Source: a virus (taxonomy: Duplodnaviria; Caudoviricetes). From it: a DNA stretch of 35,175 nt. Below, one piece after another: positions 21,347 through 28,838 of this stretch. Under the pieces are notes generated by a model that searched no databases, was not told where the DNA came from, and saw nothing but the letters and a program-made list of their open reading frames with translations. The first letter of the stretch is position 1. Every line of letters starts with the position of its first letter. The stretch covers positions 1 through 35,175 of IMG/VR virus record IMGVR_UViG_3300038312_000113. One strand, given 5' to 3'. The position numbers and the translations under genes are program-made.

Positions 21347-21542
21347 ATTTGACCGTTCTGTTGAATGGGAAACAGATTTGTGTAAGCTATGTTCTAAAAA
21401 AGATACGTGTCATCACAATATTGAACCATGCCTCCCCCTCGAAATGCTGCGCCAGTTATGTTTGAAAAGTCCGGGAGAACAGGTTGCCGACCTTCGGAAT
21501 GTAGCTGAACACTTTGATTACCCTGGTGGTGATGCCTCGTGA
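21321..21542 (+). CDS. small Cys-rich protein between portal and minor head genes
   Basis: C..C.....C......C pattern; GGAGG upstream; GTGA coupling to the next gene; exact start uncertain. Confidence 0.5.
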   Translation: MAVVAKILKFDRSVEWETDLCKLCSKKDTCHHNIEPCLPLEMLRQLCLKSPGEQVADLRNVAEHFDYPGGDAS

Positions 21543-23311
21543 GCCTGGAAGATAAGTTCAAGCAAGGTGAACAAGCCGCCGAAAAACTGGAGCAGCAGGC
21601 CGAGAAAGAAATCATCAAAGCCTACCGGGAAAGCCTGAAAGAGATCCGGGCAGAGTTGGCCCTGGCATATGAGAAATACGCCATAGCCGGAGCACTTACC
21701 ATGGCCGAAATGATGAAATACGGGCGGTTAGTGAAGTTAGAGGCGGCAATAGCTAAAGAGGTTAGCAAACTAAACGGGACAGGGGCCCGGACTACCAAAA
21801 AGACCATTAAAAAGGTATTCCAGGAAAGCTACTACCGTTCAGCTTGGGCGCTTGAAACCGGGGCCGAGGTATCGCTTAGCTTTACCTTACTGAAACCCCA
21901 GGCAGTGGAGGCAGCAATATTAAACCCTTACGACCTCATAACCTGGCCGGAAAGAATCAAAGATAATGCCAGGCTTTTGGTTAGGCAAATACGGGAGGAA
22001 ATAAGCCGGGGCATTGTCCAGGGTTATTCATACGACAAAACAGCCCGAGCAGTGAAAGAACGACTTGACATCGGGGCCAGTAAGGCTATAAGGATAGTCC
22101 AGACCGAGACCCACCGGGCACAAAGCCAGGGAACCCAAACCGCCTTTGAAGAGGCAGCGGAAAAGGGCCTGGTTTTCAAGAGGGTTTGGATAAGTACATT
22201 AGACGGCAGGACCAGAGACCGACACCGGGCGCTTGACGGCCAGAAGGCAGAAGCTGACCAGCCCTTTAAAATGGACGGCATGACCGCCATGTACCCGGGC
22301 GGGTTCGGTATTGCATCTATGGACATCAATTGTTTCCCTGGTGATATGTGCGTTTATTCCGAATCCCCGATTGAAGGAGCGACAAAACGGTGGTATGAGG
22401 GCGAGCTAATTGAAATTAAAACTACGACTGGTGTAATCGTCGCCGGAACCCCTAATCACCCGATATTGACCGAGCAAGGATGGCTGCCTCTTAATCTCGT
22501 GGCAAAAGGATGCAATGTAGTCTGCTGCGCCATCGCTGAGCCAATTACCGCGAGTAACCCATACCCATACAACAGACCAACCGCATTCGGTAAGGCGTTT
22601 AGTCTTACGGATATTGTTGGCACGGTGTCTAAGCAGAGGGCTCGCGGGGTCAATCCACAGTTCCACGGCGACGGGTTCAACAGCGATGTCGATATTATAT
22701 TTCTCAAAAGCAAGCTGGACAACAGGGTTAAGCCCGCGCTCCCGAAGCATCTCAGCCAAGACCAACTCTCCCTTGCCGAGCTTAGAGAGGGTGACTTGCT
22801 TGGTGACAGCACTTTTGGACATTTCCCTAGCAGTTCTCTTTCTCCCTCTGACGGCACTATGAGCGGCGGCAGCGAGAGCGCTGCGTTCTTCGGGGGGGGT
22901 GTTCGCCATTCTGACAAACATAGCCTCGCTACGATTGCGGCAACTGACGTTATGTTCCTGCAAGATGCGGCGAATAACAGGTCGGCTAACATTGAGGGAT
23001 TGTGCAAGAGCCTTTTCGGAAGTTCCAGCGAGATAAGTTTCGACAACGTAATTGCTGTCAATGTGCGTAAATTTTCTGGTCATGTTTATAACCTCCAAAC
23101 AAGTAATAGCGTATATATTACTAATGCCATTGTACCGCAAAAAGTCCAAAAATTCAAGGGTGCTGTGGCACACAACTGCCGGTGTACGGTCAGGGCAGAA
23201 ATTGAAGGTATGTCCCCTACCCTACGCCGGGCCCGGGATGAAAAAACCGGAAAGAATGTTGTGATATCGAATATCACCTACCAAGAATGGTATAATAATA
23301 CAGTAAAGTAG
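21539..23311 (+). CDS. SPP1 gp7/MuF-like minor head protein containing an intein
   Basis: A.RIVQTETHRA, W.STLDGRTR.RH..LDGQ; the DINCRC motif is split by the intein; spliced product about 308 aa. Confidence 0.9.
   Translation: MSLEDKFKQGEQAAEKLEQQAEKEIIKAYRESLKEIRAELALAYEKYAIAGALTMAEMMKYGRLVKLEAAIAKEVSKLNGTGARTTKKTIKKVFQESYYRSAWALETGAEVSLSFTLLKPQAVEAAILNPYDLITWPERIKDNARLLVRQIREEISRGIVQGYSYDKTARAVKERLDIGASKAIRIVQTETHRAQSQGTQTAFEEAAEKGLVFKRVWISTLDGRTRDRHRALDGQKAEADQPFKMDGMTAMYPGGFGIASMDINCFPGDMCVYSESPIEGATKRWYEGELIEIKTTTGVIVAGTPNHPILTEQGWLPLNLVAKGCNVVCCAIAEPITASNPYPYNRPTAFGKAFSLTDIVGTVSKQRARGVNPQFHGDGFNSDVDIIFLKSKLDNRVKPALPKHLSQDQLSLAELREGDLLGDSTFGHFPSSSLSPSDGTMSGGSESAAFFGGGVRHSDKHSLATIAATDVMFLQDAANNRSANIEGLCKSLFGSSSEISFDNVIAVNVRKFSGHVYNLQTSNSVYITNAIVPQKVQKFKGAVAHNCRCTVRAEIEGMSPTLRRARDEKTGKNVVISNITYQEWYNNTVK
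22406..23083 (-). CDS. antisense-encoded HTH plus Vsr/DUF559-like endonuclease inside the intein
   Basis: GGAGG RBS 8 nt before ATG 23083; HTH SEKALAQSLNVSRPVIRRIL; nuclease-like GELVLAEMLRERGL..Q......IDIA....AVE...K...L...GWSVVWVW. Confidence 0.8.
   Translation of the reverse strand: MTRKFTHIDSNYVVETYLAGTSEKALAQSLNVSRPVIRRILQEHNVSCRNRSEAMFVRMANTPPEERSALAAAAHSAVRGRKRTAREMSKSAVTKQVTLSKLGKGELVLAEMLRERGLNPVVQLAFEKYNIDIAVEPVAVELWIDPASPLLRHRANNIRKTKRLTECGWSVVWVWVTRGNWLSDGAADYIASFCHEIKRQPSLLGQYRVIRGSGDDYTSRSFNFN
23129..23157 (-). promoter_or_regulatory. sigma-A-type antisense promoter for the intein endonuclease
   Basis: Minus strand TTGAAT (23157-23152), 17 nt, TACAAT (23134-23129). Confidence 0.7.
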
Positions 23312-23646: not shown

Positions 23647-23901
23647 ATGGCCAAATATAGAAAGAAACCTGTTATTATTGAGGCAGAGCAATATACCAAA
23701 TACGGTAAACTGGTTAAAGGAATGTGTAACTCGCAAAGCTGTTATTGTGCGGGCAATACCGAACCTCATGTTCATACAATACATGATAATCAAATCATTA
23801 ACCTTGAGGTCGGTGATTATATTATTCCAGAAGCGGACGGAGAACATTATTACCCCTGCAAACCGGATATATTCGAAAAGACCTATGAACCGGCTGATTA
23901 G
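23647..23901 (+). CDS. KYRKKPV-family (PGDYG-like) phage protein, copy 1
   Basis: MAKYRKKPVIIEA...GDYII......YPCKPDIFEKTYE; AAGGAGG RBS. Confidence 0.75.
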   Translation: MAKYRKKPVIIEAEQYTKYGKLVKGMCNSQSCYCAGNTEPHVHTIHDNQIINLEVGDYIIPEADGEHYYPCKPDIFEKTYEPAD

Positions 23902-24040: not shown

Positions 24041-24062
24041 ATTGACCAAAAGGAGGGTTGAA

Positions 24063-24326
24063 ATGGCTGAGTACCGCAAGAAACCTGTGGTTGTAGAGGT
24101 GTTTAAGATGGGTATTGACCCTATACCAGATTGGTTCATGGACAAGGTTACTGCAAACGAGGTAATTCTTCATTCTGATGATTACGGGCAAACATATTGC
24201 GATATTAAGACACTCGAAGGCACAATGCGTGGAGACTATGGCGACTACATTATCAGGGGCGTTCAGGGCGAAATTTACCCCTGTAAGCCTGACATATTCG
24301 AGCAGACCTATGAACCAGTTGATTAA
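24063..24326 (+). CDS. KYRKKPV-family (PGDYG-like) phage protein, copy 2
   Basis: MAEYRKKPVVVEV...IKTLEG.M....GDYIIRGVQGEIYPCKPDIFEQTYE. Confidence 0.8.
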   Translation: MAEYRKKPVVVEVFKMGIDPIPDWFMDKVTANEVILHSDDYGQTYCDIKTLEGTMRGDYGDYIIRGVQGEIYPCKPDIFEQTYEPVD

Positions 24327-27386: not shown

Positions 27387-28838
27387 TGGCAGAGGTAAAA
27401 TGGTATGGCGATAAGGTAATAAAGAGCATGGAAGATGCCATCAGTAAGGCACTGGAAGCCTCTGCCCTTGTTGTAGAGGGAGCCGCTAAGAACCTAGCCC
27501 CGGTTGATACTGGCAACCTGCGGAACTCTATCACCCACGAGGTGGAAAAGAAAGAGGCCCGGGTGGGCACCAATGTGGAATATGCGGTAGACGTATGCCG
27601 CCCTCAATGGCGACATTGAGGTAAAAATCGGGCAATATCGGTGGAACCTAAACCTTTTAGGAACAAATGTTATAAACATATATAGAGTGTGGTACAATAT
27701 CAATGGGAGGTGTACCACATGAGAGAAGATTTAACAGGCCGTAAGTATGGAAGGTTAACTGTTGTCGAATTAGACAAAACCCGAAGTAAGCGTAAAAGTT
27801 ATTGGGTATGCCAGTGTGAATGTGGTAATACAAAAACAGTGCGAAGTGATAGCATTAAAGCCGGGGCTATTCAATCCTGCGGATGCTTGAAGGATGAACA
27901 AGACCGCATTAATTTAACTAAACACCATTCCCATAAGATGAGCAAAACAAGGCTATACCATACTTGGCAAGGAATAAAGAAACGTTGTAATAGCCTAGAT
28001 GATGCCAGTTATCCAAGATATGGCGGCAGGGGCATAACTGTTTGTAAAGAATGGGAGTCTAGTTTTGAAAGCTTTATGGAATGGGCTCTTAATAACGGTT
28101 ATTCAGATACCCTAACTATTGACCGGATAGACAACAACGGCAACTATGAACCTTCTAATTGTAGGTGGACAGGGCCTAAAGCACAAGCTAGAAATAGACG
28201 TAGTAATATCAAGGTTAGATACAACGGTAAATCTATAACCTTAATGGAACTGTCCGAAATTACAGGGCTAAATTACGGTATTTTAAGCGCGAGATATGAC
28301 CGAGGAGACAGGGGGAAAAGATTGTTGCGAGCTCCGGGAAAAGATAGGGACACCCAGATAGGAACAAAAAACTGCAACAATAAGATTGATGAAGCCACGG
28401 CAAGTGAAATTAAGGAGCGCCTCAGTAAAGGAGAAGTGGCAACCATTATTGCCCGTGACCTTGGGATATCGAAGTATATAGTTTATGACATTAAGCGAGG
28501 CAGAACATGGAATTGGCTCTAAATGGCATGGCAATACCGAGATAATTCAAGGAGTTAAAGGACCTTGAACATCGTAACGCATAGGCGGTGATCCTGCATT
28601 GCAGAATATAATCCGCCCACGAGTGCCCGACAACCCATGAGGTTGAAAATGTATGCTGACCTCATAGGAAACTATGAGAAGTAAGGGATAAAAAGCCCTT
28701 ACGGTAACAAAATGATACGTCGAACTCGGAACCGTCAAAATGGCCGCCCAGCCCTATCTTAACCCGGCCCTGGAGAAAAATAAGGGCAACATCAAAAAGA
28801 TCTTCGCCGATGCCCTGAAGGAGGCGGGGAAAGATTGA
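27383..28838 (+). CDS. HK97 gp10-like tail component split by a group I intron; exons 27383-27588 and 28715-28838 (109 aa)
   Basis: Joined exons read AKNLAPVDTGNLRNSI...VGTNVEYAVYVELGTVKMAAQPYLNPAL, the family motif. Confidence 0.88.
27688..27719 (+). promoter_or_regulatory. intron-internal extended -10 promoter overlapped by a hairpin enclosing the RBS
   Basis: TGTG-G-TACAAT 27688-27698; inverted repeat TGTGGTACA 27688-27696 / TGTACCACA 27711-27719 around GGGAGG. Confidence 0.65.
27719..28522 (+). CDS. intron-encoded HNH-type homing endonuclease with C-terminal HTH domains
   Basis: DLTG.KYGRLTV, W.C.C.CG, SCGC, YGGRGI.VC.EW, TIDRIDNNGNYEPSNCRW; C-terminal IARDLGISKYIVYDIKRGRTW. Confidence 0.88.
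   Translation: MREDLTGRKYGRLTVVELDKTRSKRKSYWVCQCECGNTKTVRSDSIKAGAIQSCGCLKDEQDRINLTKHHSHKMSKTRLYHTWQGIKKRCNSLDDASYPRYGGRGITVCKEWESSFESFMEWALNNGYSDTLTIDRIDNNGNYEPSNCRWTGPKAQARNRRSNIKVRYNGKSITLMELSEITGLNYGILSARYDRGDRGKRLLRAPGKDRDTQIGTKNCNNKIDEATASEIKERLSKGEVATIIARDLGISKYIVYDIKRGRTWNWL

Follow-up and report, generated by a model that had tools for sequence, protein, structure and literature searches.

A class-1 intein in the phage head gene

The window, by which we mean the whole stretch of DNA analysed here, is an entire viral record; its 35,175 bases end in direct terminal repeats. The gene content is that of a tailed phage, with a polymerase, a primase-helicase, a terminase, a portal and the genes of head and tail. 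The open reading frame that comes after the portal gene (21539-23311) matched the Pfam family Phage_Mu_F (E 1.5e-15) and could be divided into three parts:

21539..22330, plus strand: N-extein, a MuF/SPP1-gp7-like minor head protein ending ...MDIN (Pfam; intein-less 308-aa relatives L272/L273)
22331..23176, plus strand: class-1 intein of 282 aa, C1...H281-N282, followed by Cys+1 (motifs, Pfam and Hint model; exact 846-nt skip in one contig)
23177..23311, plus strand: C-extein, CRC... (relatives L272/L273)

Residues 265-546 of the host protein make up the 282-aa intein (CFPGD...TPNHP...GHVYNL...AHN, then C). Class-1 inteins are characterised by Cys1, a block-B TxxH, a terminal His-Asn and Cys+1, all of which were present, with C1, H43 and N282 invariant across 53 alignment rows. 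The match of the intein to Pfam Intein_splicing (E 6.5e-6) fell under the curated cut-off, and its predicted structure comprised a Hint domain modelled with confidence (Z 12.5 to 1at0, rmsd 1.7, 108 aligned) and a mostly low-confidence middle. With the motifs in place, the Hint fold recovered and empty alleles in existence, these data confirm, as far as sequence and model go, the initial annotation of 22331-23176 as a complete class-1 intein splitting the MuF/gp7-like head gene, the splicing of which is predicted. Its description of the sense-frame middle as having neither LAGLIDADG nor HNH motifs was also borne out: Pfam detected no nuclease family in the sense proteins of 53/53 family members, and hhalign found no LAGLIDADG match of the sense frame.

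An antisense reading frame with a predicted Vsr-like fold

The opposite strand of the intein carries a single long feature:

22406..23083, minus strand: antisense ORF of 225 aa, with an HTH (aa ~10-45), a helical linker and a Vsr/DUF559-like nuclease domain (aa ~100-221) (Pfam, model, structural and profile alignment)

As had been noted at the outset, this ORF (23083-22406) is stop-free over 225 codons and shares its codon register with the intein sense frame. Under phage codon usage, the chance of an open sense frame given the nuclease protein was P 2e-4, and the converse P 1e-4, so that a chance origin of the double-open frames is unlikely; in the N-extein and 15 other genes of the window, antisense stretches in the same register reached 158 aa at most. 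Two other readings of this strand were set aside, namely a 201-aa ORF in another frame (23061-22456), which had no Pfam match, and a longer nuclease start at GTG 23173, which found no family support and at which half of the relatives have a stop.

Pfam matches of the antisense protein to HTH and REase_MTES_1575 families were weak and below cut-off. Its structural model was predicted with a mean pLDDT of 92, and Foldseek, which had been proposed as a check against Vsr/DUF559, ranked I-Bth0305I and Vsr first, albeit with E only ~0.02. A wide structural search aligned model aa 100-221 with Vsr (1cw0, Z 10.4, rmsd 2.9, 112 aligned), followed by 3hrl (Z 9.6) and 3r3p (I-Bth0305I, Z 9.3). E106, D132 and E141 were invariant in 55/55 representatives and Q123 was kept in 54/55; profile alignment placed D132 on I-Bth0305I D196, and E106 on the conserved Glu of that enzyme. 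The same alignment found no equivalents of H213 and D222 in the window copy, H213 being the proposed general base of I-Bth0305I in the available text of Taylor et al. (PMC3239194). The HTH plus Vsr/DUF559-like PD-(D/E)xK protein proposed initially thus stands as to its Vsr fold and its E106/D132/E141 residues, but lacks the Vsr/EDxHD His.

A large family with both frames open

A search with the antisense protein returned 119 phage records at E 1e-5, and a scan of IMG/VR returned at least 553 stretches, 80 of which were used for locus analysis; 52 genome loci from many phyla also matched. Conservation of the antisense ORF in homologues had been proposed as a test: in all 83 loci compared (80 from IMG/VR, two named phages and the window, near-copies included), both frames were open in a single register, with stops in the two remaining frames of the opposite strand. 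The host frame was open in 52/52 genome loci, 14 of which had a stop somewhere within the nuclease HMM span. Parsing succeeded for 191 of the 204 HMM-positive loci, and 187 had more than 150 open codons from block F.

A pattern scan that took no account of the nuclease yielded 115 distinct long-flank loci, comprising 57 family members, 53 other inteins and 5 that were dropped as non-inteins or truncated. Of the 110 distinct viral inteins retrieved with this one block F-G pattern, 57 thus had the antisense ORF. Members of the family are spread over many phyla and include elements from Salmonella, Klebsiella, Pseudomonas and Vibrio phages. Antisense ORFs within the MuF genes of Gordonia phages share 41-43% identity with the antisense protein of the window, and Vivi2, which infects Gordonia terrae, has a relative.

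Intein relatives were also seen in proteins P0049, P0061, P0134 and P0094, which have PF03167 or PF00182 but lack a MuF domain; at the sequence level, this suggests that the intein jumps to other host genes. Inspection of the viral inteins brought to light other out-of-frame arrangements. In L106, L118, L120 and L152 (~1100 nt upstream of the pattern match), a same-strand, off-frame open stretch of 202-269 codons contains a LAGLIDADG-like motif, YLAGIIDGEG, recognised by eye, and resembles the dnaX case described below. The intein of a terminase-like gene (L087) holds a 198-codon same-strand, off-frame ORF that appears HNH-like by eye (HHKDFHRSND...NLE), and the in-frame middle of the L203 intein looks Vsr-type-like by eye (FPDF...VIEIY), a possible in-frame counterpart.

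Start codon and likely ribosome-binding site within block F

The predicted translation signals of the nuclease lie within the splicing region:

23081..23083, minus strand: nuclease ATG, complement of block-F His251 (CAT) (start-able codon in 110/133 relatives)
23092..23096, minus strand: Shine-Dalgarno GGAGG, complement of the N254-L255-Q256 codons (AAC CTC CAA), 8 nt before the ATG (Leu CTC in 93/120 versus 31.4)

Both assignments had been made from the window sequence, and both recur in the family. Codon and promoter tests were conducted on the 133/142 representatives with usable flanks. A start codon lay opposite the block-F His in the 110 relatives listed above, two codons on in 10/133, a frequent arrangement where this His is lost, and at neither place in 13/133; 98 of the 110 had a Shine-Dalgarno motif, and an antisense stop was found no more than 22 codons upstream in 66/133. 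Measured against each locus's own extein usage, the block-F His codon was CAT in 81/108 (40.5 expected), and the excess of Leu CTC was as given above. Within the same pattern scan, His preceded V-Y in 41/52 family clusters versus 3/43 other inteins, these controls being more AT-rich (33/43 under 45% GC).

In L009, L010, L023, L033 and L079 the block-F His is lost, and an H-G pair two codons earlier gives a shifted start, accompanied in L009 by a new GAGG. A hairpin hiding the ATG was predicted (z -1.6), yet the closing Gly250 codons were not enriched, and it was therefore rejected as a conserved switch.

A predicted promoter between blocks F and G

Upstream of these signals, the following features were recognised:

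23129..23134, minus strand: predicted -10 (TACAAT), complementary to the I267-V268 codons and 45 nt upstream of the ATG (the distance seen most often in the family, 42/133 versus 6.4)
23152..23157, minus strand: predicted -35, TTGAAT, within the block F-G insertion (weak alone)
23135..23167, plus strand: PQKVQKFKGAV, an insertion of 11 aa situated between block F and block G (most relatives lack it)

Initially, the whole TTGAAT-17-TACAAT promoter had been placed in the F-G insertion. The sequence is present and its -35 does lie inside, but its -10 falls outside, on I267-V268 just before the insertion and at the usual family position, and taken alone the promoter is weak. Nor did the idea of the insertion as promoter seat survive comparison, since 77/89 relatives are without it, many of these having -10 boxes nonetheless.

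Across the family, strong sigma-70 or extended -10 sites were found in 32/133 versus 3.8 under synonymous resampling. Boxes at 26, 45 or 48 nt before the start, distances picked post hoc from the same data, occurred in 74/133 versus 9.9 expected, the remaining 59/133 being without a good -10 there; at the same distances, other inteins gave 4/46 versus 3.7 expected. In the 26-nt type, TTGACA falls on block G, where the penultimate His is often replaced by Ser or Lys; this type belongs largely to one clade. Of the strong TTGACA type, 15/17 cases fall in one clade and so are not independent. Loss of the penultimate His with a -35 (14/42 versus 3/47) was discarded as independent evidence on the same grounds, a quick tree placing it mostly in one clade. 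Taken together, the codon tests show, at the level of sequence, that blocks F and G preserve the start codon and motifs resembling a Shine-Dalgarno and a -10 through their choice among synonymous codons.

Transcription could instead come from elsewhere, by a downstream antisense promoter or by read-through, with the nuclease translated as described and TTGAAT-17-TACAAT arising by chance. We regard this as unlikely, although it is the most serious of the alternatives. In the window, the site is only a 9/12 match (p ~0.03 under synonymous resampling), a scan of the region found 2 sites versus 1.5 expected, and the insertion is not conserved; against this, the -10 sits at the commonest family distance, 45 nt, and four substitutions of relatives hit the spacer, with none among those listed in the hexamers (small numbers). 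A promoter of the nuclease in the F-G region is the likely reading of these sequences, with strong backing from the codon tests across the family. Contigs of the RNA runs X17 (22395-22889) and X19 (22713-22863) that lie inside the antisense ORF were considered as evidence of an antisense transcript and set aside, as contigs show no strand, start or level; run X10 yielded none.

Probable mobility of the intein

Two IMG/VR sequences (L272/L273) encode an intein-less 308-aa protein, 72% identical, in which EDIN-CRC is uninterrupted, and a contig of run X3 skips exactly 846 nt at the intein. Conversely, a contig of run X4 carries the intein with 5 differences among those listed in the 846 nt (12 over 938 aligned); its match ends ~45 nt outside each junction, and the upstream head gene differs at 19/90 positions. 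The presence of a near-identical intein in a diverged head gene suggests recent homing, as seen in this one contig, and on sequence comparison the intein is probably still mobile.

A related possibility is that the family nuclease is real but the window copy, with the equivalents of H213 and D222 absent, is catalytically weak or dead and binds DNA only, the intein having spread by ordinary recombination or with the help of an active relative. The His at the H213 position is kept in 76/109 relatives and missing in 33/109 representatives, which makes the His-less form a lineage rather than one decayed copy. Furthermore, the three acidic residues are invariant, 10/18 of the listed overlap SNPs in near-identical copies are nuclease-synonymous versus 27% expected (p 0.01; 4/18 are sense-silent), and the same intein recurs near-identical in the diverged head gene. 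An inactive window copy is accordingly improbable.

Selection on both strands

Third-position freedom was typical in the nuclease frame across most of the insert, and not in the sense frame: over aa 50-100, nuclease-frame identity at codon positions 1/2/3 was 0.51/0.56/0.33. Over aa 71-235, the antisense protein was 40% conserved versus 25% for the sense protein. Identity at nuclease-silent sites was 0.31-0.35 in intein aa 71-105 and 126-235, against a background of 0.30-0.31, indicating that the sense frame is merely kept open there, and rose to 0.68 in aa 27-70 and 106-125. The latter ranges contain two double-coded elements:

22448..22468, both strands: block B, which reads TPNHPIL in the sense and QYRVIRG in the antisense frame, the latter predicted as the C-terminal nuclease strand (model, codon tests)
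22661..22675, both strands: island, which reads FHGDG in the sense and P-V-A-V-E141 in the antisense frame, the latter predicted as the catalytic strand (codon and conservation tests)

As the antisense ORF ends at intein aa 0-28 in 60/60 inteins, it runs through block B, and the predicted strands at nuclease aa 206-221 lie within the range aligned to Vsr. The codon choice of block B suits the nuclease, with Thr ACC in 48/54 (18.9 expected), Asn AAT in 50/54 (17.4 expected) and Val GTA in 25/25 (2.8 expected). In the [F/L]HGDG island, which faces P-V-A-V-E141, GCC was found in 106/108 and GTG in 101/104; the sense Asp and Gly persist where the facing nuclease residue varies, a pattern that fits selection on the sense peptide. 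FHGDG was considered as a LAGLIDADG relic and rejected (hhalign probability 0.1 versus 22 canonical inteins), as was an RNA structure, since the element folds worse than shuffles on both strands. A search of the Atlas with aa 70-135 gave only matches <0.82.

Both frames are thus open and under selection. The earlier statement that the sense frame need only remain open is true of aa 126-235 and fails for block B and the FHGDG island, which are under sense constraint; in the strand-specific comparison that had been called for, the nuclease frame was selected over most of the insert, and the sense strand at these two elements. That the antisense ORF is an unexpressed shadow of a conserved sense-frame protein is very improbable: despite the conserved sense islands (block B, FHGDG) and a partly ordered aa 81-130 in the model, the sense insert is mostly predicted disordered (pLDDT <50 over aa 127-228) and unconstrained at nuclease-silent sites, and the more conserved protein, with a Vsr-like fold, is the antisense one.

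A model for expression and homing

From sequence and structural models we judge, with good confidence, that the antisense HTH and Vsr-like protein is the likely homing endonuclease of the MuF-gene intein, likely made from its own antisense transcript. Host sigma-70/sigma-A RNA polymerase would start near 23122 and read the intein backwards, and translation would begin at the complement of the His codon, with ribosomes recruited to the GGAGG that the N-L-Q codons spell. The HTH would then bind, and the E106/D132/E141 site cut, the empty ...DIN-CRC... allele of a co-infecting phage, and repair would copy the intein with ~45 nt of flank per side. The sense message would be translated late, and the Cys-rich motif would be restored as the Hint domain splices itself out. 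Lying entirely within the intein, the signals would travel with it and uncouple nuclease output from the head protein; homing might then occur during replication, as was first suggested.

A broader joint reading, which we put forward tentatively and rate as somewhat short of even, is that a large, mostly unannotated phage intein family would be a fully double-coded selfish unit, in which splicing motifs double as nuclease promoter, ribosome site and start, block B serves as the last nuclease beta-strand, one clade has traded the block-G penultimate His for TTGACA, and a small folded sense FHGDG module has its own job (e.g. tuning splicing, or binding nuclease or metal). The locus offers a natural case of ~225-codon two-strand coding, with motifs of both proteins facing each other, maintained across many phyla. 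Antisense intein nuclease genes have been missed by annotators, yet are common, as the frequency under the one block F-G pattern illustrates.

Relation to known systems

The antisense-nuclease intein architecture, which had been offered as possibly new, is already in print: whole inteins carrying a VSR-like homing endonuclease (HEN) on the anti-sense strand were described in actinobacteriophages by Gosselin, Arsenault and Gogarten (bioRxiv 10.1101/2025.01.02.630785, main text). By our models, the window has two features of an anti-sense VSR-like HEN intein, namely no in-frame endonuclease and an antisense ORF with a Vsr fold. In that text, as in the window, the element is a full intein with an antisense nuclease ORF, the best structural match is 1CW0 (Z 10.6 there, 10.4 here), a link to 3R3P is drawn, and the hosts include minor capsid proteins. 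It differs in placing the ORFs outside the splicing domain, whereas the ORF described here begins within block F and has its end at intein aa 0-28 (60/60 inteins), and in calling such elements rare, whereas here they are found in Salmonella, Klebsiella, Pseudomonas and Vibrio phages and many phyla. The main text mentions no promoter, ribosome or start codon; its figures and supplements may bear on both ORF placement and signals. The MuF genes of the Gordonia phages Angelicage, Affeca and Keitabear match the antisense nuclease, and the main text of the preprint names all three among phages with endonuclease VII-like inteins; a second intein may be present in them, or the preprint supplement may label them differently.

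The I-Bth0305I/EDxHD enzymes, according to the available text of Taylor et al. 2011 (PMC3239194), share with the window protein an N-terminal HTH-type DNA-binding part and a C-terminal Vsr-like domain. I-Bth0305I is encoded in a group I intron, in contrast to the window nuclease, which is antisense in an intein and without H213 and D222 equivalents; given this absence, the window protein would at most work like an EDxHD enzyme, and we do not file it as a member.

Nucleases hidden in another frame and translated separately, as is predicted for that of the window, are described in the available texts on the cyanobacterial dnaX intein (Phillips et al., bioRxiv 10.64898/2026.09.14.751524), for whose out-of-frame endonucleases a Shine-Dalgarno is suggested, and on ShiLan (PMC11855218), whose HNH insertion is reported without an RBS. 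The dnaX enzyme is a LAGLIDADG in the +2 frame and that of ShiLan an HNH, whereas the window has an antisense Vsr-like gene; the dnaX text, in the part available, mentions no promoter. No report of the expression signals of such nuclease ORFs was found in the literature searched, which took in few subscription journals and no bioRxiv supplements. The element architecture is thus known, and the detail of its predicted expression signals was not found in print; these signals provide a candidate answer to a question left by the 2025-2026 papers, namely how an off-frame intein nuclease gets expressed.

Other features of the window

Elsewhere in the window, a free-standing HNH endonuclease gene (27689-28522) lies among the head-tail connector genes, and two tandem related small genes (23647-23901 and 24042-24326; MAxYRKKPV..., phrog_419/4502) are found between the head gene and the scaffold.
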